A stretch of 39,453 bases of DNA, taken from contig DASPHN010000010.1 in NCBI GenBank assembly GCA_035629655.1, positions 1 to 39,453 on the forward strand, read 5' to 3'. Shown in pieces: positions 8,949 through 35,600 of the stretch. The notes below the pieces were generated by a model. That model saw only the letters and a program-made list of their open reading frames with translations, was not told the DNA's origin and made no database searches. The first letter of the stretch is position 1, and each line of letters begins with the position of its first letter. The stretch is from Candidatus Saccharimonadales bacterium. GTDB taxonomy: Bacteria; Chloroflexota; Limnocylindria; Limnocylindrales; CSP1-4. The position numbers were made by a program, and so were the translations under genes.

Positions 8949-10628
8949 TCAGCGAGTCCCGCAGGTCGCTCGAAGCGTCGAGGCCGCGGTCCACAGCCGC
9001 CGCCGGGCATCCTCGGTCTCGTCGAGCGGTCGGAGGCCACGCTCGGCGATCTCCGACCGAACCGCGGTGGCCACGCGATCCCGCACCGTCCGCGCCCAGC
9101 GGCGACCGACCCATCCGGCATGGGCGCCGAGCAGGCGCGCGAGCAGGTACCCGATGAGCAGCGACACGACCAGGCTCGCGAACGGCGTCGCGACCTCGCC
9201 GAGCACGGGCACATCGACGGTCGAGGTCGACGGCCCGCCCAGGACCCAGATGACGACCCAGGCCACGGAGAGGGCGATGGCCACGGTCGCGAGCGTCTGC
9301 AGGAGACCGAAGAGCCGCCACCACCGGCTCGCGGGCGCCTCCAGCGGGCCCAGTGCGACGATCGAGCGGTCCACGGCCCGTTCCAGGCCGAGGCGCAATG
9401 GCGCCGGCTCCAACGCGGCGGCAAGCCGTGCCCGCACGCTCGGGCTTGCGGCGCGCAGCGGCGCAGCGAGCGCCTCGCGAAGGACCTCGACGGCCGGGGT
9501 CAGGGGGCCGCGCTCACGCCAACGGACGAGGTAGCCGGCAGGATCGGCGACGCGCGTCTCCCGGCCGGAGGCCCGATAGATGAGCCCGGTCAGCCGTCCG
9601 ATCGGGCCGGTGCCCTTCGAGCGTGCCCGAGCGCGCGTCGCCGCCTCGGCCTGTCGCTCCAGACCGCCCAGGTCGACCGTCCGCAGGACGGCGGCCGTCG
9701 CGGCGTCGATCGCGGCGGTCCGCGCGGCAGGGGCGAGGAACGGCGTATTCGGTCGGGAGGGATCGATCCCCGCGTCCCGCGCGAGCGTCGCCCCGCCATC
9801 CAGCACCGTCGCGGCGATGCGGTCCCGGACGATCCGTTTCGCGGCAACGCCGTCGGACAACCACGCGCGCAAGCGTTGGACGTCCGGCGCCGCCGGTGCC
9901 GCGGTCCCGGCAGCCGGCGCGGCACTGGTGAGGAGGATGGGGACGGGCGGAGCCGCCGATGCACGTGCCGCGCCCAGATCGCGCTCCAGGTCCCGTCGGA
10001 CGCGCTCGGCATCCTTGGACGTGAGCCGGTCCGCCTTGTTCACGACGACGACCTGTCGAGCGAGACGCGGCAGCCAGGCGCGCAGGAAGGCGTCGTGCAG
10101 CGCCGCGTCGTGGTACTTCTCCGGGTCCACCACCCAGGCGACGGCGTCCACCCGAGGCAGGATCGCCTCGACCCGGCTGCGGTGCTCGGCCGCGACCGAG
10201 TCCATGTCCGGAAGGTCGAGGATGGCGACAGGTCCCAGCGCATCGGCGGCGTGCTCGCGGATGTCCCGGACGCCGAGCCAGGCCAGGAGCGGGTCAAGGT
10301 CCGCACGTTCGACGGCCGGGACCCAGGCGACCGGATCGGAGGTGGTGGGCCTCCGGACCGACGCGGGGCTGACGGTCGAGCCCGCGAGCGCATTGAGCAG
10401 GCTCGACTTCCCGACGCCGGTGCCTCCCACGAAGGCCAGGACGTAGGCATCGCCCGGGAATCCGAGACGTCGCGCGGCGTCCGCGTGCGCTTCTCGAACG
10501 CGCGCCGTGTCGATGCCCATCTGGTCTGCGGCGTCTGCCGCATCGAGCAGGCGCTGCAGGCAGGCGTCGAGCGGGTCGGTCCCGTCCATGGGCGGTCCGT
10601 CGAGGGGCGCGAGCGTCGGGACCGTCAT
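8949..10628 (-). CDS. dynamin-like GTPase with two C-terminal transmembrane helices (DynB/LeoBC-like)
   Basis: G1 GGTGVGKSSLLNAL, G3 ILDLPDMDS, G4 VVVNKADRL, a long helical stalk, then WWRLFGLLQTLATVAIALSVAWVVIWVL and FASLVVSLLIGYLLARLLG. ATG 10626-10628 overlaps the stop of the upstream GTPase gene (ATGA). The track ORF start at 11123 is an Arg-rich read-in. Confidence 0.8.
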   Translation of the reverse strand: MTVPTLAPLDGPPMDGTDPLDACLQRLLDAADAADQMGIDTARVREAHADAARRLGFPGDAYVLAFVGGTGVGKSSLLNALAGSTVSPASVRRPTTSDPVAWVPAVERADLDPLLAWLGVRDIREHAADALGPVAILDLPDMDSVAAEHRSRVEAILPRVDAVAWVVDPEKYHDAALHDAFLRAWLPRLARQVVVVNKADRLTSKDAERVRRDLERDLGAARASAAPPVPILLTSAAPAAGTAAPAAPDVQRLRAWLSDGVAAKRIVRDRIAATVLDGGATLARDAGIDPSRPNTPFLAPAARTAAIDAATAAVLRTVDLGGLERQAEAATRARARSKGTGPIGRLTGLIYRASGRETRVADPAGYLVRWRERGPLTPAVEVLREALAAPLRAASPSVRARLAAALEPAPLRLGLERAVDRSIVALGPLEAPASRWWRLFGLLQTLATVAIALSVAWVVIWVLGGPSTSTVDVPVLGEVATPFASLVVSLLIGYLLARLLGAHAGWVGRRWARTVRDRVATAVRSEIAERGLRPLDETEDARRRLWTAASTLRATCGTR

Positions 10629-12337
10629 CCCGTGACGATCGGCAGTGCCCGGAGCGCCCCGGCGGCGGACCGCAGGTCGCCGGCGAGCTCGCTCAAGGCG
10701 CCGGCCTCGGGCAGGAGCCGGTCGAAGCGACTGCGCTCTTCGAGGAAGGTCGTGGTCAACGCCTCCTGGAGCCGCGCCCGTGCATCGGCGATGAGCTCGA
10801 CCATCGCGGCCTCGCCGAAGAGCGCGGAGAGGAGCTTCTGGTTGAGGAACGCGGTCGCCGCCGCGACGCCGACCTCGGCGCCGGTCAGTCCACCAGTGTG
10901 CAGGAAGGTCCCGAGCATCACGCCCGTTCCGAGCACATTGACGCCGACGGACGCGCCCCTGGCGAGTGTCCGCTTCGACTGGCCGTGCAACTGGATGTCG
11001 GTGACGATGCTCTCGATCCAGCCGTCCAGCCGGTCTCGAAGCCGCGCGTCGAAGTCGGGGGAGGGCAGCCACAGGTCGGCGTCCGCCGCGATGACCGGTC
11101 CCATCGCCGGCACATCGGACCATGCGCCGGCCGTGCGGCGAGCCGCCTCGGCCGCCTGGAGCCGCGCGACGGCCACGAGGTCATCGGTCGTGGCGGCTCG
11201 CATCTCGGCGACCGGGGCCGTGGCCGGCCGGAGCACAGAGGCGATCGCACCCCGGATCCGGCCGATCCCGTCGGAGAAGAAGCGCGTCATCTGGTCCGCA
11301 CCGACGAAGGACTGCCAGTGGCGCAGTGCCTCCTCGCGGAGGAACGCACCCTGCGCGATCTCCTGACGCAGGGCGACGAGGCTCGACTCGTACGTCCGGT
11401 CGGCGAGGCGCCGCAACGCCTCGACATCGATCGCCTCGTGGTCGGCGTCGTCGGCGATGCGGTCCAGGCTGTCGCCCAGACCAAGGAGCGAGCCCGTCAG
11501 GGCTCGTGTCGCGAGCTCGATGCGTGCTTCGCGGTCCGCCCGGAGGCGCCCGATCTCGGCGGTCAGCGTGGCGATCGTCGATGGGATGAGTTGCTCCCCG
11601 CCTGCGTCGAGGTCGCCCTCCCGGACCGCCACCAGCTCGGTCGGGGCCGTGTCGTGCTCGGCCGTGCGCAGCGCATCCAGGCCGGCGTCGGCCAGCAGGC
11701 GGCGGACATCGTCGAGAACGTCGACCTGGTCGGCCGGATCCGACGGCATCCGGTTCACGACGACGAGCAGGGGCAGGCCGCGTTCCCGGACCCGTTCGAG
11801 GACGGCCCACGGGACCTGGTCGGCATAGCGTGTCGCGGTCGTGACGAAGACGCACAGGTCGGCAGCCTCGACGAGGCGGTCCGCGAGCGCCCGATTGGCA
11901 TGCTCGACCGAATCGATGTCCGGCGCGTCGATGAGCGCGAGGCCGCGGTCGATCTGCTCGTCCTCGACGAATCGCAGCAACTCCGGTCGCACCGCGGCCA
12001 GCGCACCCTCGAGGAGCGACGCCCGGTCCCCAGGGTGGACCAGGACGACGGCGACGCGTGTGGTCGGCCGCAGCACGCCCGTCGTGCTGGCGGCGTGCCC
12101 GGCGATGGTGTTGAAGATGGTGCTCTTGCCGGCGCCCGTGGGTCCCACGAGCAGGACGACGAGCGGGGCGTCGAGCGAACGTGCCCGGACGCGGACATGG
12201 CCGGCGAGATGATCGGCCAGTTGGCGCGCCCGCGCCGTTGCGGCCTCGCTTCGTGCGGGCAGGGCGAGACGTCTCGACGCGAGCGTCTCGAGACGCTCGA
12301 CGAGGGCGCGAAGGTCCGCGGGCGCCGTGCCGATCAC
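10625..12337 (-). CDS. dynamin-like GTPase (DynA/LeoA-like), first gene of a two-gene operon
   Basis: G1 LLVGPTGAGKSTIFN, G3 LIDAPDIDS, G4 VVVNRMP, a helical stalk and a hydrophobic Gly-rich paddle-like segment GASVGVNVLGTGVMLGTFLHTGGLTGAEVGVAAATAF. GTG start at 12335-12337. Confidence 0.8.
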   Translation of the reverse strand: MIGTAPADLRALVERLETLASRRLALPARSEAATARARQLADHLAGHVRVRARSLDAPLVVLLVGPTGAGKSTIFNTIAGHAASTTGVLRPTTRVAVVLVHPGDRASLLEGALAAVRPELLRFVEDEQIDRGLALIDAPDIDSVEHANRALADRLVEAADLCVFVTTATRYADQVPWAVLERVRERGLPLLVVVNRMPSDPADQVDVLDDVRRLLADAGLDALRTAEHDTAPTELVAVREGDLDAGGEQLIPSTIATLTAEIGRLRADREARIELATRALTGSLLGLGDSLDRIADDADHEAIDVEALRRLADRTYESSLVALRQEIAQGAFLREEALRHWQSFVGADQMTRFFSDGIGRIRGAIASVLRPATAPVAEMRAATTDDLVAVARLQAAEAARRTAGAWSDVPAMGPVIAADADLWLPSPDFDARLRDRLDGWIESIVTDIQLHGQSKRTLARGASVGVNVLGTGVMLGTFLHTGGLTGAEVGVAAATAFLNQKLLSALFGEAAMVELIADARARLQEALTTTFLEERSRFDRLLPEAGALSELAGDLRSAAGALRALPIVTG

Positions 12338-17659: not shown

Positions 17660-20464
17660 TCAGCCCTCGGCGGGGCTCCCCGGCGAGATCGCATCGAGAT
17701 CGGCTCGGGCGAGCTCCGTCCGCGACTGCACGCCGACCGTGCGGAAGATGCGAGTGAGATGGGCCTCGACGGTGTGGACGCTCATGAACAGCGCGTCCGC
17801 GATCTCCCGGTTGGTCTCGCCGGCCGCGGCCAGCTCGGCGACGCGCCGCTCCGTGTCGGTGAGCGGCGAGCCGGGCGGTCGGCGACTCGCGACGCGGGCC
17901 AGCTCCGCCTCCGCGCGATCCGCCCAGACCGTGGCACCGAGCTCGGTGAACATCCGGTATGCCGTCTGGAACGCCGCCCGCGAGGCGCCCTTCTGTCGGG
18001 CGCGCCGGCGGACGTCGCCCAGCGCGAACCACGCCCTGGCCGCGCGGAAGGGCAACTGCAGCCCGGCATGGAGCTCGACCGCCTCCTCCGCGGCACGGAC
18101 GGCCGCGTCGTGGTCGCCATCAGCTGCCAGGACGAGGGCGCGAACACGCAGCGCCTCGGCGAGCGCGGCGGCCGGGCCACGCCGGCGGGCCCGTCGTTCC
18201 AGCCGCTCGATGCCGGGCCGAGCCGCATCGATGGATCCGAGCGCGATCATGGCCTCGCCGTCGAGCGCGACCGTCGTCTCCCAGCGGATGGGGAGGAGGC
18301 GACCGAGACCCGGCTCTGCCAGGACGGGGGCCAGGCGGTCGCGCGCCTCCGTCGGGTCACCGAGCGACAGGTCGAGCATCGCGAGCGCCATCGAGGGTGC
18401 CGTCCGGACCTTCGGTTGTTGCGAGGCCAGGGCATCCGGCTCGATGGCGGCCCCGAGCGCCCGTGCCGTCTCCACGTCACCCCGAAGGGCGGCGAGATCG
18501 AGTCGGAGCATCAGGAGGTCCTGGTAGAAGGCGCCCTCTCCGGTCTGGAGCAGACCGGCCTGTGCCTCGTCCGCGATCCGCTCGGCTCGGTCCCAGTCAC
18601 CCGCATCCAGCTCGATCCCGGCCAGGGAGACCAGGAGCCGCGGCACGCTGGTGTAGTCCCCACCGGACCGGGCGCTCTCGATCAGCCGCGCCAGCCGCCG
18701 ACGCCCCTCGTCCACGCGCCCTTCGCGGGCGAGGAGCCGGGCGAACTGCAGGTCTGGGTGCTCGAGCGCCGGAACGGCCGTCGTGGGCACGCCAAGCGCG
18801 TCAGCGCGCTCGATCAGGTCGTGCCATGGACGACCCAGACCGAACCGCCAGGAGGCCGCGTGACCCAGCATCTGGAGCTCGAGCGGCGCGTCGCCGAGCT
18901 CGTGTGACAGCCGAAGCGCCTCCCACATGTCCAGCCGTGCAGGCCGCCAACCGCGACCGGACAGGTAGCCGACGCCCGCGAGCAGCGCATGGATCGTCAC
19001 GCGGCGACGGGGATCCCCGACGGTCAGCGGCATCGCCGCTCGAAGGAAGGCCGATGCGGACTTCAGGTCCGTGAGGTACAGGGCGACCCGCGCTCGACGG
19101 GTGAGGACATCCGCCAGGAGCGGTCCGGGTCGGAGGTCAGCGGCGATCGATCCGAGCAACGCCTCGAGACGGCGAAGGTCACCGGAGGCCAGGAGGTAGT
19201 CGGCCGCCGCCAGGCGACGGCGGTGCCGATCGTCCTCCGCGTCAGGCATGGTGAGCCGGGCAGCCTCCTCGGCCAGGTCGGCAGCCACGTGCGAGGCGCC
19301 ACGACGGGCGGCGATCGCGGCGCCCTGCTCGAGCGCCGCCGCGATGGCCGGATCGGGACCGACCGCCGTCCGCGCGAGGTGACGGGCGTGCTCCTCGGGT
19401 TCGGTGACGACGTCGGCGAGACGCTCGTGGACGTGTCGTCGTCGGACGGGTGTGGCCCGGTCATAGGCCGCTGCGGCAAGGAGTGGATGGTCGAAACGGA
19501 GGGCGTCGCCGTCCACTTTGAGGACACCCGCCGCCACCGCTGCATCGACACCCGCCCCCGTGCGTTCCGCCCCGATCGCCTCCGTCAGGATCTGCACGGT
19601 CGGATGCGACAGGGCCGCCACGAACAGGGCGACCTCGTCCGCGGGCGGTGCCAGGGCAGACACCCGGTCGCCGGCCAGCCGATCGAGGCTGCGTGGCACC
19701 TCGAGCGCGTCCGGTGTGGCCCAGGTCCCGCGCGCCTGCAGCCCACGCCCGAGCTCGATCGCGTAGAAGGGCGTCCCGCCGGCGACCTCATGGAGTCGGG
19801 CGAGGACGGGTCGCGAAAGCCGCAGGCCCAGACGCTCGCGAAGGAGGGCGCCGGTCGCATCCATCGAGAGCGGCCCGATGTCGAGGCCGGCGACATGAGC
19901 CTCGGGCATCGTCGCGATCCAGCTCGGCGGCGGATCGTCGGCCGTCGTCGAGCGGCGAGCGAGCAGGAAGCCGACCCGGTCCTCGTCGAGTCGTCGGATC
20001 GCGAACTCGAGCGCACGGATCGAAGCGTCGTCCAGCCAGGGGACATCGTCGATGGCTACGAGGAGGGGCGTCTCGGACGCTGCGGACCGAAGGACGTGGA
20101 GCGTGGCCAGCGAGACACCGAGCGGATGCGGCGGCGTCGGCGACCAGGCGCGGAGCAGCGCCGCGTCGAGTGCATCCCGCTGGGGCTCCGGAAGGTCGGC
20201 GACCGGTGCCTCGAGGAGCGGGCCGAGCAGGTCGCCAAGGGCAGCGAAGGCCAACCCGGTCTCGACCTCTGTCGGCTGGGCCGTGACGACCCGGAAACCA
20301 CGGCCCCTGGCGGCGGCGACCCCGGCGTTCCAGAGCGTGGTCTTGCCGATCCCGGCCTGGCCGGACAGCAGCAGCACTCGCGCAGACCCACCCTCGACGT
20401 CGTCGAGGAAGTGCTCGACCTCGTCGAGTTCGGTCCGACGTCCCAGGACCGGGGCGATCGCCAT
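17660..20464 (-). CDS. LAL-family regulator: N-terminal AAA/STAND-like ATPase, TPR-like helical repeats and a C-terminal LuxR/GerE HTH
   Basis: Walker A LLLSGQAGIGKTTL and Walker B LLVAIDDVPWLDDAS, a roughly 600-aa helical repeat region, and the C-terminal LTDTERRVAELAAAGETNREIADALFMSVHTVEAHLTRIFRTVGV (934 aa). Confidence 0.9.
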   Translation of the reverse strand: MAIAPVLGRRTELDEVEHFLDDVEGGSARVLLLSGQAGIGKTTLWNAGVAAARGRGFRVVTAQPTEVETGLAFAALGDLLGPLLEAPVADLPEPQRDALDAALLRAWSPTPPHPLGVSLATLHVLRSAASETPLLVAIDDVPWLDDASIRALEFAIRRLDEDRVGFLLARRSTTADDPPPSWIATMPEAHVAGLDIGPLSMDATGALLRERLGLRLSRPVLARLHEVAGGTPFYAIELGRGLQARGTWATPDALEVPRSLDRLAGDRVSALAPPADEVALFVAALSHPTVQILTEAIGAERTGAGVDAAVAAGVLKVDGDALRFDHPLLAAAAYDRATPVRRRHVHERLADVVTEPEEHARHLARTAVGPDPAIAAALEQGAAIAARRGASHVAADLAEEAARLTMPDAEDDRHRRRLAAADYLLASGDLRRLEALLGSIAADLRPGPLLADVLTRRARVALYLTDLKSASAFLRAAMPLTVGDPRRRVTIHALLAGVGYLSGRGWRPARLDMWEALRLSHELGDAPLELQMLGHAASWRFGLGRPWHDLIERADALGVPTTAVPALEHPDLQFARLLAREGRVDEGRRRLARLIESARSGGDYTSVPRLLVSLAGIELDAGDWDRAERIADEAQAGLLQTGEGAFYQDLLMLRLDLAALRGDVETARALGAAIEPDALASQQPKVRTAPSMALAMLDLSLGDPTEARDRLAPVLAEPGLGRLLPIRWETTVALDGEAMIALGSIDAARPGIERLERRARRRGPAAALAEALRVRALVLAADGDHDAAVRAAEEAVELHAGLQLPFRAARAWFALGDVRRRARQKGASRAAFQTAYRMFTELGATVWADRAEAELARVASRRPPGSPLTDTERRVAELAAAGETNREIADALFMSVHTVEAHLTRIFRTVGVQSRTELARADLDAISPGSPAEG

Positions 20465-20473
20465 GTCAGACGG

Positions 20474-20980
20474 TCAGTCAGGTCGCCAGGGATCGATCTG
20501 GGGCAGACCGTGGATCCCGAGGGTCTGCGAGAGCTCGCCGCAGTGGTACGCCTCGTGGGTCAGGAGGCGTTGCAGGATCGAGGCCCGGGAATGGACCTGG
20601 CGCTCATCGCCGTATCGGCGCTCGACGGTCTCATCGAGCATCTCGGGCGTCCATCGATCGAGGCAGCCGTCCACGATCGACCAGGTCGTCTGGAGGGCGG
20701 TGACCAGCTCGGCGGCCGTCCGCGGGTGGTCGAGGTGGTCCTCCCATCCGTCGCCGTCCGCGCGCGGCCACGGGGTGGTGTCCGCACCTGGCTCGCCCAG
20801 CACACCGCACAACCAGTAGACGCGGACGCCAGCGGTGTGGCCCACGGTGGCCCAGATCGGCATCAGGTCGGGAGCCGGCCGGATCGCGAGCTGCGCATCG
20901 GTCATGGTCCCGATCACCTCGCGGAGTCGGCGGTCGTACTGTGGCCAACGGTCGTAGAAGCGACGGATGGACATGCGCAC
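20474..20980 (-). CDS. DinB family protein
   Basis: Four-helix-bundle pattern with IWATVGHTAG and THEAYHCGELSQTLG (His triad typical of DinB/DinB_2). It ends 9 nt upstream of the LAL start codon. Confidence 0.75.
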   Translation of the reverse strand: MRMSIRRFYDRWPQYDRRLREVIGTMTDAQLAIRPAPDLMPIWATVGHTAGVRVYWLCGVLGEPGADTTPWPRADGDGWEDHLDHPRTAAELVTALQTTWSIVDGCLDRWTPEMLDETVERRYGDERQVHSRASILQRLLTHEAYHCGELSQTLGIHGLPQIDPWRPD

Positions 20981-21115
20981 GAGTCTAGTGCGGTCCGGGA
21001 GCGATAGGGCAGCTTCCTCGATGCACCAGTAATCCGTGGGCGGTGCGTGGACGCACCCTCGACCGGGACTTCCGGGCTATATTGCCGGCAGGACCCCAGT
21101 CCCCGAGGTACGGAC

Positions 21116-23038
21116 GTGTCACTCATCCAGCGGATGGAACGGGCGCAGCAGGCCAAGTCAGCGGAGGCGGCCGCCGCGGCAGACGGTCACGCTCCCTCGC
21201 TGAACGGCGGGGCGCCGGCAGCCGCCAAGGCCGAGCCGACAGCAGAGGCAGTGGCCGCGGCGATCAGCGCGGCAGCAGTCAGCGATCGCCCGCCGGTCGC
21301 GGTCCCGGTCCTGCGCCCTGGCGCCGGCCACCTGCAGGCCGCGCCCACCCCCGTTCGCGGGGACATGATCCTCGAGCTCCGCCTCCGCCTGCAGCAGGAG
21401 ATCGTGGGCGCGTTCAAGACGCTGCTCGACGCCAAGGACGACGAGGTTCGCGGCCGCATCGAGCCCCTGGTCGACAGCGCGATCGCCTCGGGCGGATTCG
21501 CGGTCACGCGCGAGGAGCGTGCGAGGCTCATCGACGAGATGGTCCACGAGGTGACCGGCTTCGGACCGCTCGAGCCACTGCTCTCGGATCCGTCCATCAC
21601 CGAGGTCATGGTCAACGGACCGAACCACATCTACGTCGAGCGCAAGGGCAAGATCCAGCGGGTCGATTCGGTCTTCCTGAACGATCTGCACGTCCTGCGC
21701 GTCATCGAGCGGATCATCACCCCGCTCGGCCGGCGGATCGACGAGTCGAGCCCCCGCGTCGATGCGCGCCTGCCCGACGGCTCGCGCGTGAACGCGATCA
21801 TCGCGCCGCTCTCGCTCATCGGCCCCGTCATCACCGTCCGCAAGTTCTCGCAGACGCCGTACACGGTCAAGGACCTCATCGGCTTCGGGACGGCGACGCC
21901 CGAGATGTTCGAGTTCCTGCGCGCCTGCATCGAGGCGCGACTCAACCTCTTCGTCTCGGGTGGCACGGGCTCGGGCAAGACGACGACGCTCAACGTCCTG
22001 TCGTCGTTCATCCCCGAGGAGGAGCGGATCGTCACGATCGAGGACGCGGCCGAGCTTCAGCTCAATCAGGACCACGTCATCACGCTCGAGGCACGGCCGC
22101 CGAACCTGGAGGGCGAGGGCGAGATCACGATCCGGAATCTGTTGCGCAACGCGATGCACATGCGTCCCGACCGGATCATCGTCGGCGAGTGTCGTGCGGG
22201 CGAGGCGCTCGACATGCTCCAGGCGATGACGACCGGCCACGATGGCTCGCTCTCGACCGGACACGCCAACACCCCGAAGGACATGCTTCGGCGTCTCGAG
22301 ACCATGGTCCTGATGACCGGCTACCGGATGCCCCTGCGTGCGATCCGGGAGCAGATCTCGTCGGCGGTCGATGTCATCGTCCACACGGCTCGACTCAAGG
22401 ACGGCCAGCGCAAGATCGTCAACATCACCGAGGTCTACGGGATCGAGGACGACGAGATCCTCACCCAGGACATCTTCGCGTTCGTCCAGACCGGATTCAA
22501 GGACGGCAAGATCGAGGGGTCGCTCCAGCCGACCGGGGTCCGGCCGACGTTCATGAGCCAGTTCCAGCGGGCTGGCGTCGAGCTACCGCCCGACCAGTAC
22601 GGGATCCCGCCCGAGGATCCGGAGAAGCCGGACAAGCCGCTCAAGAGCCGATTCGGGGCCAAGACCTCGTCGAAGATCGAGCTCGCCGCCGTGCCGGTCG
22701 GCGATGGCCGGACGGTCGTGGCCGGTGGGATGGTCTACATCTCGTCCATCGGCCCGGTCGATCCCGAGACGGGCGCCGTGATCGGCGGGACGATCAAGGA
22801 CCAGACCCGCCAGGCGATGTCGAGCCTGCGCGAACGGCTCGAACGAGCCGGGAGCTCGCTCGACAATGTCGTCTGGGCCAACTGGTCGCTGCGCGACGCG
22901 GCGGACTTCGATGAGTTCAACGAGGAGTGGAACCGCTGGTTCCCCGGCGACCCGCCGATGGGCCAATGCACGATCATGCCGCCCCTGCAGCGTCGGGCCG
23001 GTTTCGGCATCTCCCTCGGGGTGATCGCGACCGTCTAG
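21116..23038 (+). CDS. CpaF/TadA-type (type II/IV secretion family) ATPase fused to a C-terminal RidA/YjgF/L-PSP-like domain
   Basis: CpaF core: [33 protein letters not shown], Walker [62 protein letters not shown]. RidA-like tail (22676-23035): [61 protein letters not shown] 21116 is preceded by GAGG 7 nt upstream. The ORF is a single uninterrupted frame. Confidence 0.85.
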
Positions 23039-23044
23039 GTACGA

Positions 23045-23635
23045 TCAGCGGCTGTCGAGCGCCTCGGAGTCCTCGGGACCGAACGCGACGCCCGTCCGCT
23101 GCCAATCGGCGTAGGCCGCCACCAGGCCATCGTCATCGACCGTCAGCTCGGCCGAGAAGCCACCGCTCGAGAAGCGGTACGTGTATTCGTCGAGACGGCT
23201 GTAGGTCTGAGCGACCTTCACGACCTCGAGCTCGGGGAACCTGACGAGCGCGACCTGGATCGTCGACGAGGCGCCGACGGCCAGCCGCAGGCGCCGGATC
23301 GGCAGCGTGTTCGTGGACGGGCTGCAGCCCAGATCGATATCGGAGCAGCCCTTGAGCTTCTTCGCCGGCGAACCATCCACCGTCCAGGCACCCTTCGCCG
23401 AGCGCTCGGCGGTGAGGACCCGCTGGTCGAAGCCGCGCAGGTCCCGGACATGGACCGCGGTGGTCACACCCGCGCCGTCAGCCAGGACACGGTATTCGTC
23501 GCGGACGGGTACGCCGCCCTCGGATCCGAGCACCGTCCCGATGAGCGACAGGCCGCTATCACGGACGGCAAGCGTGCAGTGCTCGTCCGCCAGGACCTCG
23601 TCCGATCGCCGCCAGGCCACGCGCCGCGTCGTCAC
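23045..23635 (-). CDS. putative glycolipid-binding domain protein (PF06475-like)
   Basis: CSDIDLGCSPSTNTLPIRRLRL and the overall length (196 aa) match my recollection of this family's D(V/I)DLGxxPxTNTLPIRRL signature. Confidence 0.65.
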   Translation of the reverse strand: MTTRRVAWRRSDEVLADEHCTLAVRDSGLSLIGTVLGSEGGVPVRDEYRVLADGAGVTTAVHVRDLRGFDQRVLTAERSAKGAWTVDGSPAKKLKGCSDIDLGCSPSTNTLPIRRLRLAVGASSTIQVALVRFPELEVVKVAQTYSRLDEYTYRFSSGGFSAELTVDDDGLVAAYADWQRTGVAFGPEDSEALDSR

Positions 23636-23664: not shown

Positions 23665-25053
23665 TCAGGGGCTCCAGAACGCGACGAGGCCGTCCATGCT
23701 GGCCAGCACCTCGCCCTCGGGCGTCATCGCGAGGACCCGGGCGCCGTCCTCGTTGAGGACGGGGATGAGGAACGAGGAGCTGTCGGGCGCCCACAGCCGA
23801 TGACTGAGCGCGTATTGGTCGAAGTACGTGATCACCTGTTCGATGAACACCTGCGAGGGCTGGATCACGGGGTCGGCCAGGATGTCGCCGCTCGCGACGT
23901 CGACGAAGACCAGCCGCACTTCCGGAGCGCCGTCGACGGTCTCGACCCTGATCGCCGCGATCATGGTTCCGTCGGGCGACCACCAGAAGCTCACGACCGA
24001 GCCGTCCAGCAGCACCCGCGGTGTGTCCGTGCCGGGGTCCAGCAGCCGGATGGGACCGAGCGTGACCCCGACGACGTCGGTGGGCTCGGTCGCCCCCACG
24101 GCCGCCAGCGTGGTGCCGCTGGGGTCGAAAGCCATCGCCGCGGCACCGATCACGGGCATCGACCCGACGTCCTCGCCGCCACGCTCCAGGAGGACGATCG
24201 ACCCGGGGCCGGTCGACCCGTCGGCGGCCGTCGCCCCCGCTCGGACGACCGCTTCGTACATGCCATCGGCGCTGATCGCCGGCGAGCGGAACACACCTGC
24301 GGCCCCGAGGGTGCCCTCGGGTCCCTCGCCGTCGAGCCCGATCTCGCCGAGGAACGCCTCGGGGCCGGTCCCGATGTGGGCGATCAGGCGGTCCGACCCG
24401 ACCCAGCCGTAGTAGAACGGGTTGCCCTGCCGGACGATGCTGCCCGGCCCCGACCCATCGAGCGGCGCACTCCCGTCCGACGGCGCCAGGCGGAGAGTCA
24501 GGGCCTCGCCCGCCTGTGCCAGGAAGGACACGGCCTCCGAGTCGGGACGCCATGACAGGTAGAACGGCACGACCGTCGCGCTCTGGAAGACGACCGTGTG
24601 CGACGCGGGGGCGAGCGCCTGCAGGGTCGGATCGATGACCACGATCTCACGGCCCTCCTGGACGTCGCGCGTGAGCGCGACATGCGCCCCGTCCGGCGAC
24701 CAGGCCGGGAAGCCGAGCGAGGCGATCCCGGCGGTCGACGCGAAGACCGTCTCGCCCGAGGCATCGATCAAGGACAGCGTGTCGCTCCCGCGGCTCAGGA
24801 GGGCGACCGTCCCCTCCGACGCAAGCCGACCGACCGGTGCGAGCGTGGAGGATGGCGCCGGGGCGCTGCTCGCGGTCGGGGCGCTCGGGGTCGCGCTCGC
24901 GCCGACACTCGGGGAAGGAAGGAGTGGACCGAGCGTCCGGAAGGCCTCGACGGCCGAGGGCGCTGGCGCCGGGGCGCATCCCACCGCGATCACGACCGCG
25001 GCGGCGATGACGGCGACGACCGACGATCGAGCGCGCGCTGCCGTGGTCGCCAT
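23665..25053 (-). CDS. PD40/TolB-like beta-propeller lipoprotein
   Basis: Start at ATG 25051-25053: MATTAARARSSVVAVIAAAVVIAVGC (lipobox). Repeated WSPDG-type blades follow (FPAWSPDGAHVALT, YLSWRPDSEAVSF, FWWSPDGTMIAAI, LWAPDSSSFLI). The track start at 25284 adds an implausible extension. Confidence 0.75.
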   Translation of the reverse strand: MATTAARARSSVVAVIAAAVVIAVGCAPAPAPSAVEAFRTLGPLLPSPSVGASATPSAPTASSAPAPSSTLAPVGRLASEGTVALLSRGSDTLSLIDASGETVFASTAGIASLGFPAWSPDGAHVALTRDVQEGREIVVIDPTLQALAPASHTVVFQSATVVPFYLSWRPDSEAVSFLAQAGEALTLRLAPSDGSAPLDGSGPGSIVRQGNPFYYGWVGSDRLIAHIGTGPEAFLGEIGLDGEGPEGTLGAAGVFRSPAISADGMYEAVVRAGATAADGSTGPGSIVLLERGGEDVGSMPVIGAAAMAFDPSGTTLAAVGATEPTDVVGVTLGPIRLLDPGTDTPRVLLDGSVVSFWWSPDGTMIAAIRVETVDGAPEVRLVFVDVASGDILADPVIQPSQVFIEQVITYFDQYALSHRLWAPDSSSFLIPVLNEDGARVLAMTPEGEVLASMDGLVAFWSP

Positions 25054-25162
25054 CACGACACGATACGCGCACCACGGGGAGACGGATGCGCGGCGACCGG
25101 GTTCCATCGGGAGCCCGAAGGACGTACGCTCCGGACTCGACCGAACGCAGGAGGAACGATCC

Positions 25163-25405
25163 ATGACGACGATCAGGGCAGCCCTTGCCCAGGCGATGCG
25201 CCTCCCCGACGACAGCGCGACGGTCAAGCAGCTGCACGACGGCGGGCTGGCGATCGCCGACGAGGGGACGATGAGCCAGGCCATCCACGACGTCTATTGC
25301 GGGATCGTCGCCGACCATCAGCACCCGAACGAGAAGGATCGCCAACAGGCACGGACCCTGATCGAGTCGCTCCAGAAGATCGCGTCGTCGCAGTACCCGG
25401 CGTAG
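25163..25405 (+). CDS. hypothetical small protein (80 aa)
   Basis: ATG 25163 is preceded by GGAGGAA 7 nt upstream. The composition is natural (MTTIRAALAQAMRLPDDSATVKQLHDGG...NEKDRQQARTLIESLQKIASSQYPA). The gene ends 14 nt before the nucleotidyltransferase gene. No family recognised. Confidence 0.5.
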   Translation: MTTIRAALAQAMRLPDDSATVKQLHDGGLAIADEGTMSQAIHDVYCGIVADHQHPNEKDRQQARTLIESLQKIASSQYPA

Positions 25406-25419
25406 GGCCAGCCCCGCGC

Positions 25420-26217
25420 GTGCCCGACCTCTCGCCCGGCACGCGCGCACAGATCGACACGGTCGTCGAGCTCGCTCGTGCCGTCTTCGGTGACGCGGCA
25501 CACGCGGCATACCTGTATGGCTCGGCGGTCCGCGGGGGCCTCAAGCCGGACAGCGACCTCGACATCCTGCTCGTCCTCGAGCGGCGGACGACCGATGCCG
25601 AGCGGCGCGCGCTCATCGGAGGCCTGCTCGAGCGGTCGCGCTCGCGGAAGCACCCCGACCGCCGGCATCTCGAGGTGACCGCCGTCGTGATGCCCGACCT
25701 CCAGCCGTGGGTCTACCCGCCGCCGATGGAGCTCCAGTACGGCGACTGGTGGCGGACCGAGTTCCAGGCCGGCCACTTCGCCCCGTGGACCTCGCCGAAC
25801 CCGGACCTCGCGGTGCTGTTGACATCGGTCCGCGAGGAGGGCGTGCCGCTCTTCGGGCCGCCGGCAGCCGACGTCATCGCTCCCGTCTCGAGGGACGACC
25901 TCATCCGGGCCGTTCGCGATGTCATCCCGGAACTGTTGCCCGGCCTCGAGGACCACGACACCCGGAACTCGCTGCTGACCCTCGCCCGGATCTGGTTCAC
26001 GCTGTCAACGGGCAGGATCGAGGCGAAGGACGTCGCCGCGACGTGGGCGCTCGAGCGACTGCCGGACGGGACCGGGGAGGCCCTGCGCCTGGCGCGAGCC
26101 GGCTACCTGGGCGAGGCGAACGACACCTGGGACGAGCCGGGGAGGGCCGCGGCGCGCACCGATTGGCACGCGATGCTCGGTGCCATCGAGACGGCCGACG
26201 CGCCGGAGGATCGCTGA
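25420..26217 (+). CDS. aminoglycoside nucleotidyltransferase, ANT(3'')/AadA-like (NTP_transf_2 + DUF4111)
   Basis: AYLYGSAVRGGLKPDSDLDILLVL (compare AadA HLYGSAVDGGLKPHSDIDLLV), ELQYGDWWR, NPDLAVLLTSVREEG and NSLLTLARIWFTLSTGRIEAKDVAA. A GTG start at 25420 gives an AadA-like N-terminal length. Confidence 0.8.
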   Translation: MPDLSPGTRAQIDTVVELARAVFGDAAHAAYLYGSAVRGGLKPDSDLDILLVLERRTTDAERRALIGGLLERSRSRKHPDRRHLEVTAVVMPDLQPWVYPPPMELQYGDWWRTEFQAGHFAPWTSPNPDLAVLLTSVREEGVPLFGPPAADVIAPVSRDDLIRAVRDVIPELLPGLEDHDTRNSLLTLARIWFTLSTGRIEAKDVAATWALERLPDGTGEALRLARAGYLGEANDTWDEPGRAAARTDWHAMLGAIETADAPEDR

Positions 26218-32635: not shown

Positions 32636-33450
32636 ATGCCCCTCTTCCTCGACCGCCACGATCTCACGGGCGCCAGCGCCCAGGATCTGGCGGCTGCCCA
32701 CGTCGAGGACATCTCGATCCAGGACGAGTACGGCGTCCGCTATCTGACCTACTGGTTCGACTACGACCGCCAGCGAGCGTTCTGCCTCGCGAACGCTCCC
32801 GATGCGGACGCAGTGATCGCCGTGCATCGAGCGGGACATGGCGGGATCCCAAGCGACGTGATCGCCGTCGATGGCCAAGAGGTCGAACGTTTCCTCGGCC
32901 CGCTCCGCGAGCGGCCTCCGGGGGAGGCATACGTCGAGACCGCGTTCCGGACGATCCTCTTCACCGACATGGTCGGCTCGACCCGGCTCACGCAGGACCT
33001 GGGCGACAGTGCCGCCATGGCCATCCTGCGCGACCACGACCGGGTCGTCCGGCGCGTCGTGGACGATCGTGGCGGGACGGTGGTCAAGCACACCGGCGAC
33101 GGCCTGATGGTGTCGTTCGCCTCGGTGACCGCCGCGCTCGAGGCGGCCATCGCCATCCAGCGTGATCTGGCGGACCGGAACCGTGACGCCGAGCACCGTT
33201 GGCCGTGCGCATCGGCCTCGCCGCCGGTGAGCCGGTCATGGAGGGCGGTGACCTGTTCGGGGCGGCAGTCCAGCTCGCCGCCCGCCTGTGCGACCGGGCC
33301 GGCTCGGGCGCCATCCTCGTCTCCAGCACCGTTCGAGATCTCGCCGTGGGCAAGCGATTCGCGTTCGAACGTCGTGGCCGAGCGACACTCAAGGGCTTCG
33401 ACGAGCCAGTCACGCTGTTCGAGCTCGGGTGGCGACCGCCGGCCGACTGA
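32636..33450 (+). pseudogene. DUF4242 (SCO4226-like) - class III adenylate/guanylate cyclase fusion, interrupted by a 1-nt frame change near 33197-33201
   Basis: The N-terminal MPLFLDRHDLTGASAQDLAAAHVEDISIQDEYGVRYLTYWFDYDRQRAFCLANAPD is DUF4242-like. The cyclase domain RTILFTDMVGSTRLTQDLGD...VVKHTGDGLMVSFAS...AIAIQRDL runs in the frame of 32636 up to ...DAEHR. The expected continuation LAVRIGLAAGEPVMEGGDLFGAAVQLAARLCD...LKGFDEPVTLFEL is in the -1 frame (33199-33450). Confidence 0.75.
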
Positions 33451-33587: not shown

Positions 33588-35600
33588 ATGCGCACGCTCA
33601 ACCTCGGCATCCTCGCTCACGTCGACGCCGGTAAGACCACCCTCACCGAACGCCTCCTCTACACCGCCGGCGCGATCGACCACGTCGGCAGCGTCGACGC
33701 CGGCACCACCCAGACCGACTCACTCGACCTCGAGCGCGAACGCGGCATCACCATCCGATCCGCGGTCGCCTCGTTCCTCCTGGGCGACCTGGCGGTCAAT
33801 CTCGTCGACACGCCCGGCCACCCCGATTTCATCGCCGAGGTCGAGCGCGTCCTCGGCGTCCTCGATGGCGCGGTCCTCGTCGTCTCCGCGGTCGAAGGCG
33901 TCCAGCCCCAGACCCCGTTGCTCTTCCGGGCGCTGCAACGCCTGCACGTCCCGACCTTGATCTTCGTCAACAAGCTCGACCGGTCCGGCGCGGACCCGGA
34001 CGGGGTCGTCGCAGCGATGCGTCGACGCCTGGCTCCCGGCGTCCTGCCGATGGGCCGGGCCATCGACCCCGGTCGACGTGAGACCACGGTCGTGCCGTTC
34101 ACCCCGGCCGACGACATCCACCGGCAGCGCCTGATCGAGGCCCTCGCCGAGCACGACAGCTCCATCCTCGATGCCTACGTCACGGACCCGGGGGCGCTCA
34201 CCGCGGACCGCCTACGCGAGCAGTCGGGCGTCCAGACCCGCGCGGGCGTCCTCCACCCGGTCTTCTTCGGGTCGGCGGCCCGTGGCATCGGCATCACCAG
34301 CCTCCTCGCGGGCGTCGACGAACTCTTCGGCGGCGCCCTGGGCGATCCCGACGCCGACGTCTCCGGCCGCGTCTTCAAGATCGAGCGGACCACGTCCGGC
34401 GAGCGCGTCGCGTACGTGCGGCTGTTCGCAGGGACGCTTCGGCCGCGGCAGCGCGTGCGAGTCGGCGGACGGGACGAGACCAAGCCGACGTCGATCCGGG
34501 TCTTCGCGCCGACCGGCGCGCCTCGTCGCGACCACGCGGTCGCCGGAGAGATGGCGACCGTCCGCGGTCTGGGCGCGGTCCGGGTGGGTGACGCCATCGG
34601 CGACCCGGCGCCGGGCCACGACATCACGGCGCGCTTTCCGCGCCCGACCCTCGAGGCCGTCGTCTTCGCGGTGGACACGAACGAGCAGGGCTCGCTGCGC
34701 GCCGCCCTCAACCAACTCGCGGAGCAAGATCCGCTCATCGACGTTCGCCAGGACGACCTGCGTCACGAGATCTCCGTCTCGCTGTACGGCGAGGTCCAGA
34801 AGGAGGTCATCCAGGCGACCCTCGAGCGCGACTACGGGATCGCCGCCGACTTCCACGAGACGACGACGGTGTGCATCGAGCGGCCCGCACGAGCCGGCCA
34901 GGCCGAGGAGGTCATCCGGGCCAAGACGAAGACCAACATCACCGGCCGGAGCTCACCGGACAGCACGAATCCGTTCATGGCCACGTTGGGATTGCGGATC
35001 GAGCCGGCGGCGTTCGGATCGGGCGTGGAGGTCCGTGTCGACATCGAGCCACGGCTCGTACCCCTTTACCTGTTCAAGACGCCTGAGGTCTTCACGACGC
35101 AGCTGACCGCGTACATCCAGGAGGCGCTCAGCGAGGGGCTCGCCGGTTGGCAGGTGACCGACTGCCGGGTGATCGTGGTCGACTGCGGCTACGCGTCCCC
35201 CGTCACGTCAGCGGCGGACTACCGTCGGCTGACCGAGCTCGTCCTGGCCACGGCACTCCGTCGCGCAGGGACCTGGGTCTGCGAGCCGCTCGCCGAGCTC
35301 TCGCTCGAGACCCCGACGGCCACGGCGTCGGGCGTTCTGGCCGCGGTCGGACGACTGAACGGGCGCGTGACCGGGCAATACTCGGCGAACGGGCTGACGC
35401 ATGCGTCGGCGGTGCTTCCGGTCGCGCGCGTTCGCTCGCTCCAGCATCAGCTGCCGGGGCTGTCGATGGGCGAGGGCATCCTCGAGACGCGCTTCGGTGG
35501 TTACCAGCCCATCGGTGAGGACCCGCCGACCAAGCCGCGCTCGCGCCCCAGCGCTCTCGATCGCGAGGCCTGGCTCGCGTCGCTGGCCAAGCGCGGCTGA
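33588..35600 (+). CDS. ribosomal protection-type translational GTPase, Tet(M)/Tet(O)/OtrA family (EF-G-like)
   Basis: MRTLNLGILAHVDAGKTTLTERLLYTAGAIDHVGSVDAGTTQTDSLDLERERGITIRSAV...NLVDTPGHPDFIAEVERVLGVLDGAVLVVSAVEGVQPQT...LIFVNKLDR aligns by eye almost position for position with the Tet(M) N-terminus. The protein is 670 aa, and GAGG lies 4 nt upstream of the ATG. Confidence 0.85.
   Translation: MRTLNLGILAHVDAGKTTLTERLLYTAGAIDHVGSVDAGTTQTDSLDLERERGITIRSAVASFLLGDLAVNLVDTPGHPDFIAEVERVLGVLDGAVLVVSAVEGVQPQTPLLFRALQRLHVPTLIFVNKLDRSGADPDGVVAAMRRRLAPGVLPMGRAIDPGRRETTVVPFTPADDIHRQRLIEALAEHDSSILDAYVTDPGALTADRLREQSGVQTRAGVLHPVFFGSAARGIGITSLLAGVDELFGGALGDPDADVSGRVFKIERTTSGERVAYVRLFAGTLRPRQRVRVGGRDETKPTSIRVFAPTGAPRRDHAVAGEMATVRGLGAVRVGDAIGDPAPGHDITARFPRPTLEAVVFAVDTNEQGSLRAALNQLAEQDPLIDVRQDDLRHEISVSLYGEVQKEVIQATLERDYGIAADFHETTTVCIERPARAGQAEEVIRAKTKTNITGRSSPDSTNPFMATLGLRIEPAAFGSGVEVRVDIEPRLVPLYLFKTPEVFTTQLTAYIQEALSEGLAGWQVTDCRVIVVDCGYASPVTSAADYRRLTELVLATALRRAGTWVCEPLAELSLETPTATASGVLAAVGRLNGRVTGQYSANGLTHASAVLPVARVRSLQHQLPGLSMGEGILETRFGGYQPIGEDPPTKPRSRPSALDREAWLASLAKRG

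Follow-up and report, generated by a model that had tools for sequence, protein, structure and literature searches.

A lineage-fixed Rid module on a CpaF-family secretion ATPase of Limnocylindria

We analyzed a 39,453-nt stretch of DNA, referred to below as the window, from Candidatus Saccharimonadales bacterium (contig DASPHN010000010.1 of assembly GCA_035629655.1; GTDB lineage Chloroflexota, Limnocylindria, Limnocylindrales, CSP1-4), and focused on a single gene in which a CpaF/TadA-type secretion ATPase continues, through a linker, into a C-terminal domain of the Rid (RidA/YjgF) fold (Table 1). The gene occupies one uninterrupted open reading frame (ORF; 21047..23038, plus strand), whose GC content at third codon positions (GC3) is 0.90 and whose codon bias is typical for genuine genes in the 70.6% GC DNA of the window. 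Translation from the GTG at 21116 gives an N-terminus that fits the family consensus and a product identical to the 640-residue database protein P0001. A scan of 20700-23400 detected neither a consensus sigma-70 promoter nor an intrinsic terminator. The initial annotation of this DNA, made from the letters alone, had proposed a scan for two Pfam domains, and both pass their gathering cut-offs: T2SSE (PF00437) at residues 147-423 (208.9 bits, cut-off 24.9) and Ribonuc_L-PSP (PF01042) at residues 533-617 (expectation value (E) 1.5e-15, 57.7 bits, cut-off 27.3). A sequence check also found all the strings quoted there in their places. Precomputed annotations additionally put PF27713 (UCP018868), as an unconfirmed label, on the window protein and its homologues.

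Table 1 Features of the fusion gene in the window, and CpaE-like genes in related loci. NTD, N-terminal domain; CTD, C-terminal domain; AF2, AlphaFold2; pLDDT, predicted local distance difference test.
Feature	Locus	Coordinates	Strand	Basis or remark
Whole gene (CpaF-linker-Rid fusion)	window	21116..23038	+	640 codons plus stop, GTG start
GAGG, Shine-Dalgarno-like	window	21105..21108	+	7 nt 5' of the GTG start; read from sequence
Ala/Pro-rich disordered N-terminal region, equivalent to CpaF NTD0	window	21179..21352	+	pLDDT <50 (AF2)
Three-helix N-terminal domain, equivalent to CpaF NTD1	window	21356..21556	+	AF2 helices; aligns to CpaF 9e24
T2SSE PF00437 core: NTD2 and RecA-like CTD	window	21554..22384	+	Pfam, E 1.2e-61
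Loop 8 segment RRIDESSP, with Asp equivalent to CpaF D208	window	21731..21754	+	Alignment to CpaF
Walker A / P-loop GGTGSGKTT	window	21959..21985	+	Alignment; invariant in the family
Asp box	window	22022..22057	+	Alignment to CpaF 9e24
Central Loop NLEGEGE, equivalent to CpaF E331-G-S-G334	window	22103..22123	+	Alignment to CpaF
Walker B, including catalytic Glu	window	22166..22195	+	Alignment to CpaF 9e24
His box	window	22232..22270	+	Alignment to CpaF 9e24
Canonical CpaF C-terminal tail (LQPTGVRP...)	window	22523..22603	+	Alignment reaches residue 490/501 of Caulobacter CpaF
Linker, 30 aa	window	22604..22693	+	pLDDT <50; GIPPEDP and K-x-R-F/W-G motifs conserved
Rid (YjgF/YER057c/UK114, L-PSP) fold, 114 aa	window	22694..23035	+	Pfam, PDB matches, AF2, Foldseek
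Gly616 codon at the position of RidA catalytic Arg105	window	22961..22963	+	Alignment to E. coli RidA
CpaE-like receiver plus ParA/AAA_31 gene	L033	10760-12016	-	
CpaE-like receiver plus ParA/AAA_31 gene	L063	10556-11776	-	
CpaE-like receiver plus ParA/AAA_31 gene	L087	7511-8731	-	
CpaE-like receiver plus ParA/AAA_31 gene	L089 and L090	10001-11221		

The ATPase core and its C-terminal module

Over its first ~489 residues the window protein aligns with the solved CpaF of Caulobacter crescentus (9e24, 8rkd; E 5e-118, query 14-483 opposite CpaF 9-490 of 501), and FlaI, GspE2 and VirB11 match this part far less well (E 1e-44 or weaker). It shares with Caulobacter CpaF the domain order, the nucleotide motifs, the C-terminal tail, the Loop 8 Asp and the EGxG motif. 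The first 95 residues include 26 Ala, and residues 1-79 of Caulobacter CpaF are likewise disordered, preceding an NTD1 that is a 3-helix motif (PMC11300603). An AF2 model of the full-length monomer reproduces this layout, with a disordered NTD0, a three-helix NTD1, NTD2 and a RecA-like CTD. The Asp box, Walker B and His box are, like Walker A, invariant across the family of fusion proteins, and the ATPase part is complete and, judged from its sequence, looks catalytically competent. In Caulobacter CpaF, D208 and E331-G-S-G334 are proposed contacts to the TadB/TadC platform (PMC11300603); in the alignment, the window protein keeps these positions as DESSP and EGEG, respectively.

The ATPase part is 59-61% identical to the canonical-length, non-fused CpaFs P0133 and P0134, and ~56-61% identical to a tandem CpaF (P0023) encoded in a cpaE-cpaF-tadB operon (locus L085). 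None of the cluster members of the closest non-fused CpaF representatives could be assigned to Limnocylindria, and P0133 has a low-GC-type composition. The protein scores 320.1 bits against TIGR03819 (TadA family conjugal transfer-associated / helicase-secretion neighbourhood ATPase), under the cut-off of 373.15, and is thus not filed under that equivalog. Non-fused relatives (P0133, P0134 and the CpaF of L085) stop a few residues past the motif GVELPxxxFG. The window protein has the same tail and then runs on, which indicates that the Rid module was added onto a complete CpaF and replaces no part of it; unlike Caulobacter CpaF, the fusion carries 144 further residues (linker and Rid) past the normal C-terminus. 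The operon at L085 (JGI contig Ga0494770_0021431, 61% GC) is a canonical tad operon fragment comprising cpaE, a gene for a 919-aa tandem CpaF-CpaF, a third cpaF and tadB, so that three CpaF ATPase units stand in series.

The Pro/Glu/Lys linker described in the initial annotation is present between the two domains and is predicted to act as a flexible tether; its conserved motifs (Table 1) make it more than a mere spacer. The Rid module that follows matches RidA-type structures in the PDB by sequence (2dyy, 1xrg and 1x25; E down to 6e-15). In an AF2 model of the C-terminal 144 residues, pLDDT is 80-94 within the Rid domain, and Foldseek superposes this model on 1xrg, 5hp7, 8v8r, 1qd9 and 2dyy with a probability of 1.00 and a root-mean-square deviation of 1.4-1.7 Å over ~110 residues. 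Against RidA structures, the target-normalised template modelling (TM) score is 0.7-0.9, with 26-34% identity in the structural alignments. The module therefore has the same fold as RidA, with E. coli RidA (1qu9), P. horikoshii PH0854 (2dyy) and B. subtilis YabJ (1qd9) as its nearest relatives; these are RidA-type, not YjgH-type. Unlike RidA, a free-standing protein of ~125 residues, it is the tail of a 640-residue ATPase.

We then compared the residues of the RidA active site, using an E. coli RidA reference identical to PDB 1qu9. The segment PPMGQCTIM (22952-22978) occupies the site of the catalytic Arg, and in a pairwise alignment with 1xrg, PMGQC falls opposite PARSC. The position of Arg105 is Gly in 120 of 120 homologous protein clusters and in 75 of 75 loci with a readable motif. 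In all 120 sequences the loop that would carry Tyr17 is deleted, and at the Glu120 position 103 have Ser and 11 have Thr. The module has invariant motifs of its own instead, namely VVWANW, FDxFNEEW, P-x-G-Q-x-T-x-MP and QRRAGF; W587, N589, W590, G616, Q617 and R626/R627 are among its invariant positions. Arg105 is essential to imine hydrolysis (Niehaus et al. 2015, PMC4433059), and with Gly at this position throughout, the Rid module is predicted to be a non-deaminase. The suspicion of an altered site, first raised by eye, is thereby borne out by the alignments.

It might still be argued that the domain works as an enamine/imine deaminase of the RidA type, fused to the ATPase for co-expression or local detoxification, given the Pfam L-PSP match, the RidA-subfamily identity of its nearest sequence and structure neighbours, and public annotations of fragments that read "2-iminobutanoate/2-iminopropanoate deaminase". 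The loss of Arg105 in every sequence, the deleted Tyr17 loop, the replacement of Glu120 by Ser or Thr, and a TIGR00004 (RidA) score of 49.6 bits, under the cut-off of 106.25, make this very improbable. The module keeps the RidA fold, lacks the residues on which imine deamination depends and, on its sequence, is not expected to work as a deaminase; its appearance is that of a branch derived from RidA whose site has been remodelled.

Arg-less Rid proteins have precedents. Members of the Rid4-Rid7 groups lack the catalytic Arg, and no imine hydrolysis is predicted for them; the Arg site is Trp in Rid4 and Rid7 and variable in Rid5 and Rid6, and Glu120 and Tyr/Phe17 are retained (Niehaus et al. 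2015, PMC4433059). The Rid module of the fusion resembles these groups in lacking the Arg. Judged by the published signatures, it differs from them in its invariant Gly at the Arg site and in the loss of both Glu120 and Tyr17.

Distribution and integrity of the fusion

We next assessed how widely the fusion occurs. At the protein level, T2SSE was found in all of the 119 other best-scoring clusters (formed at 90%) besides the window protein, and L-PSP also in 118 of them, with 72-84% identity to the window protein; the sole best cluster without a Rid domain was the tandem CpaF P0023, at 61% identity. Where the cluster sources name an organism, it is Candidatus Limnocylindrales. At the genome level, a tblastn search of GTDB species representatives with the linker and Rid alignment returned 265 positive stretches, from which the best 80 were taken. 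Nearly all of these 80 carry the label Chloroflexota, Chloroflexia or Limnocylindria; the label is Verrucomicrobiia for one and Anaerolineaceae for two, and these exceptions probably reflect noise in binning or labelling.

Of the 82 loci in which the ORF could be located, 75 have Walker A and the Rid motif within a single ORF, so that orthologues keep the fusion, a check that the initial annotation had called for. The seven exceptions comprise five genes interrupted by a contig end and two frameshifted copies (L025 and L032), and in the broken copies the frameshift positions differ between assemblies and do not fall at the domain junction. An exhaustive search of representatives at 50% added one intact, diverged fusion (P0125, 65% identity) and a fragment (P0240). 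Three further candidates for distant fused relatives (P0179, P0135 and P0131) were rejected as frameshifted translations of the same family. Identity in the CTD is at least 76% within the fusion family, compared with ~60% to non-fused CpaFs. The CpaF-Rid fusions form one tight, lineage-specific family, and the fusion is fixed across Limnocylindria.

Conservation along the protein was measured as mean pairwise identity in 67 full-length sequences, consisting of the window protein and those of 66 related loci. It was highest in the ATPase CTD (0.86), followed by the ATPase NTD (0.74) and the Rid module (0.72), and lower in the linker (0.49, gap-free) and the disordered N-terminus (0.40, gapped). 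With a value close to that of the NTD, the Rid module is constrained like a core domain of the motor, a pattern in the sequences that we read as strong purifying selection.

A Rid-only search returned short "RidA" proteins (P0279-P0398, 120 entries). Among those that could be checked on long contigs, a collinear CpaF coding sequence lies immediately upstream, with the frame shifted differently in each assembly. All checked entries proved to be parts of the fusion gene, either frameshifted or called from an internal start, and we therefore rejected them as stand-alone Rid homologues; nothing in the search pointed to an ancestor with two genes or to a split version. Many such entries from Limnocylindria, of ~100-220 residues and named "RidA family protein" or "2-iminobutanoate/2-iminopropanoate deaminase" (with loci L086, L087, L088, L025, L032, L040 and L012), appear to be fragments of the fusion gene (three were checked directly), arising from contig ends, gene calls at internal Met codons and frameshifts in long-read metagenome-assembled genomes. 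They too are without the catalytic Arg, and such Limnocylindria "RidA" entries should not count as deaminases.

The separate short "RidA" calls that some public assemblies carry beside T2SSE fragments are also what would speak for the fusion being an artefact, with two neighbouring genes joined in error during sequencing, assembly or gene calling. These split calls are frameshifted copies in which the position of the shift differs per assembly, the ORF is uninterrupted in 75 independent loci, which come from different studies and assemblers, and the linker is free of gaps in all full-length sequences, which leaves the chance of an artefact negligible. With the two Pfam domains, the related clusters and loci, and the frameshift survey in agreement, the three-part architecture of CpaF, linker and Rid, as first proposed, is real and not the product of a sequencing error.

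Gene neighbourhood and the probable Tad pilus of the lineage

On balance, and with a confidence only a little above even, we read the gene as encoding the motor ATPase of the lineage's Tad (type IVc, Flp) pilus with an added Rid module. Such a motor calls for partners, and the surroundings of the gene are the first of several points that weigh against this reading. Canonical cpaF genes reside in tad operons. Unlike operonic CpaF, the fusion gene stands outside a cpaE-cpaF-tadB-tadC operon, flanked by a divergent DinB_2 gene (20474-20980, minus strand) and a convergent Glycolipid_bind gene (23045-23635, minus strand). None of T2SSF, Flp, TadE, RcpC or a ParA-type domain was found among the Pfam-scanned ORFs of the window, which are those of at least ~80 residues other than ORF 8949-~10560. 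Four related contigs of 0.5-3.1 Mb are free of pilus genes within 10 kb of the fusion gene, and ~80 related genomes have no TadB/TadC, Flp, TadE or prepilin peptidase gene within ~10 kb of it. A phmmer search with the TadB of the L085 operon found no T2SSF match in the window or in 1.39 Mb of flanks (~85 loci, six-frame ORFs), although with this single partial query a very distant T2SSF could escape. The remaining points concern the protein and the genomes. The AF2 full-length model has a mean pLDDT of 63.6, with parts of the ATPase at low confidence, and speaks for the monomer only. The conservation of D208 and EGxG may reflect a general structural constraint and not platform binding. Trimerisation of the Rid modules is a prediction, and ligand binding by them a possibility. 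Finally, the pooled gene lists considered below do not place the fusion and tadB/tadC in one genome, as far as those lists go, and the cpaF entry in them may be the fusion gene itself or a separate paralogue.

The lack of Tad partners, first noticed in the window, thus extends to the surroundings of about 80 related loci, and with no partner in the window or in the flanks of relatives, the solitary arrangement is a conserved property of the family. Nor is there a conserved neighbour of another kind: when 739 flanking ORFs from 80 loci were clustered, the commonest family was present in 18 of the 80 loci, and none of the recurrent unannotated neighbours are Tad parts. This commonest family consists of secreted PD40/beta-propeller-like proteins, homologous to the product of 23665-25284 (minus strand) in the window, which has 539 residues, is predicted to be secreted or lipoprotein-like and has no Pfam match; the homologue at L021 gives a faint PD40 match only. 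The pair of DinB_2 and LAL-type regulator genes next door, offered at first as a possible conserved partner, is not conserved in this set. The regulator gene (17660-20464, minus strand; 934 residues, AAA_16, TPR and LuxR/GerE) lies directly downstream of DinB_2 with a 9-bp gap. An intact gene for a TPR and cyclase protein (~655 residues) lies a few genes from the fusion gene in 15 of the 80 loci.

Solitude of this kind would also suit a paralogue that has left the pilus, that is, a hexameric ATPase, soluble or anchored in another way, in a non-pilus process to which the Rid module lends specificity, perhaps together with a CpaE-like ParA protein. The monocistronic gene, the missing conserved neighbour and the absence of T2SSF from the flanks all fit such a paralogue, as do the tightness of the clade (CTD identity of at least 76% within it, ~60% to non-fused CpaFs) and a CpaE-like gene that itself lies outside tad operons. 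We nevertheless consider it unlikely, since every CpaF feature is kept, including the proposed platform-contact residues, and an identity of ~60% to operon-encoded CpaFs persists. It would moreover leave the tadB, tadC, flp and cpaB orthologues of the lineage without a motor, cpaF being the sole type IV pilus-type ATPase orthologue seen in the parts of the published lists considered here.

Returning to the pilus-motor reading, we looked for Tad partners elsewhere. A CpaE/TadZ-like gene with receiver and ParA domains is found downstream of the fusion gene, in convergent orientation, in L033, L063 and L087 only (Table 1). Its 406-residue product is 78-86% identical across the lineage, and sources call it "pilus assembly protein CpaE". 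The gene is monocistronic and always adjoins, in divergent orientation, rpsF-ssb-rpsR; it is not consistently close to the fusion gene, which it adjoins in a subclade only. Followed as a route to a tad operon, it led to none. Being conserved and yet monocistronic, it suggests that Tad-type genes are dispersed in these genomes.

For the KEGG Orthology (KO) identifiers relevant here, we take K02279 to be cpaB, K02282 cpaE, K02283 cpaF, K02651 flp, K02654 a prepilin peptidase gene, K12510 tadB and K12511 tadC, and K02652, K02653 and K02669 to be pilB, pilC and pilT. A comparative study of Limnocylindria from 2026 gives, in its source data, KO lists pooled by habitat for the family CSP1-4, and in the stretches of these lists considered here K02279, K02282, K02283, K02651 and K02654 are present for both freshwater and sediment (PMC13212565). 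K12510 and K12511 are present in the freshwater list, their absence from sediment possibly being an artefact of the stretches listed, and K02652, K02653 and K02669 are absent from the CSP1-4 stretches listed (PMC13212565). To this extent, the lineage has a Tad gene set of the monoderm type, in lists that are pooled across genomes and do not describe a single one. Taken together, the retained contact residues, the CpaE-like gene and the KO lists make it likely that Tad partners are encoded elsewhere in the genome. The term "orphan", applied to the gene at the outset, accordingly holds for gene order and probably not for the partners as such.

Several other genes of the window deserve mention. 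Two tandem P-loop GTPase genes (8949-~10560 and 10625-12337, both minus strand) look like a bacterial dynamin-like pair; the second matches Dynamin_N and MMR_HSR1, and the first carries GGTGVGKSSLLNAL. The highest GC content in the window (75.7%) is found at 9001-10000. An 87-residue ORF (33187-33450, plus strand) corresponds to the C-terminal half of an adenylate/guanylate cyclase domain and is probably a gene remnant. The gene at 33588-35600 (plus strand) encodes a 670-residue, five-domain EF-G-like GTPase (GTP_EFTU, D2, III, IV and C), for which an EF-G paralogue and a ribosomal-protection-type protein are both possible. An AadA-like aminoglycoside nucleotidyltransferase gene (25399-26214, plus strand; NTP_transf_2 and AadA_C) is likewise present on this environmental Chloroflexota contig.

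A candidate regulatory module on a probable pilus motor

Solved Rid proteins are trimers with inter-subunit clefts, and for this reason the Rid modules of the fusion are probably trimeric as well. We propose that the fusion protein would form the usual CpaF hexamer and that this hexamer would power extension and retraction of the Flp pilus through TadB/TadC encoded elsewhere. The CTDs make up the base of the CpaF ring (PMC11300603), and the Rid modules would hang from this base, away from the platform-facing side, as two non-catalytic trimers per hexamer beneath it. There they might bind a small ligand in their remodelled clefts, tie adjacent subunits together, or do both, and in this way tune the motor. 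A regulatory or oligomerising add-on is the most likely nature of the Rid module, its role being considerably less certain than the pilus-motor reading itself. In more specific readings, to which we give low credence, the module would be a dedicated small-molecule sensor or trimerising clamp that links extension and retraction of the pilus to a metabolic signal, or the fused ATPase would be part of a new, cytoplasmic machine outside the pilus with the CpaE-like ParA. If either were true, this would be the first function for an Arg-less Rid protein and a new type of regulation for type IV filament ATPases.

Accessory domains on motors of this family have been seen before. MshE and PilB are T2SSE-family ATPases with N-terminal cyclic di-GMP (c-di-GMP)-binding domains. 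Among the proteins collected here, a CpaF-STAS protein (P0188) and CpaF-RcpC proteins (P0146, P0195 and P0201) likewise consist of a motor core with a C-terminal accessory domain, a plausible regulator of the motor or tether for partners; the RcpC/CpaB cases may be true fusions or merged gene calls. The fusion described here differs from all of these in that the appended module has a Rid fold. The initial annotation had known of no described function for this architecture, and a literature search agreed: no report was found that links a secretion or pilus ATPase (CpaF/TadA) with a RidA/YjgF/L-PSP domain, and nothing relevant was found on pili in Limnocylindria. The fusion sequences are already public under the generic names "pilus assembly protein CpaF" or "ATPase, T2SS/T4P/T4SS family". 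The concern that the architecture might prove common and already annotated thus applies in its first half, within the lineage; a functional annotation is absent. What is new here is a lineage-fixed, previously undescribed Rid accessory domain on a CpaF-family motor.

Conserved fusions without an assigned role are common, and the "orphan" aspect probably concerns gene order only, both of which temper the interest of the finding. The uncultured Limnocylindria reach high abundance in soils, sediments and lakes, where the comparative study puts them at up to 18-30% of communities (PMC13212565). How CpaF switches between extension and retraction is an open question, and a lineage with a fixed C-terminal module on this ATPase offers a natural experiment on the regulation of the motor. 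Arg-less Rid proteins are numerous, and one account calls their function "completely unknown" (PMC4433059); with its attachment to a machine that is well understood, one such protein gains a concrete setting in which ideas on its role can be tested.

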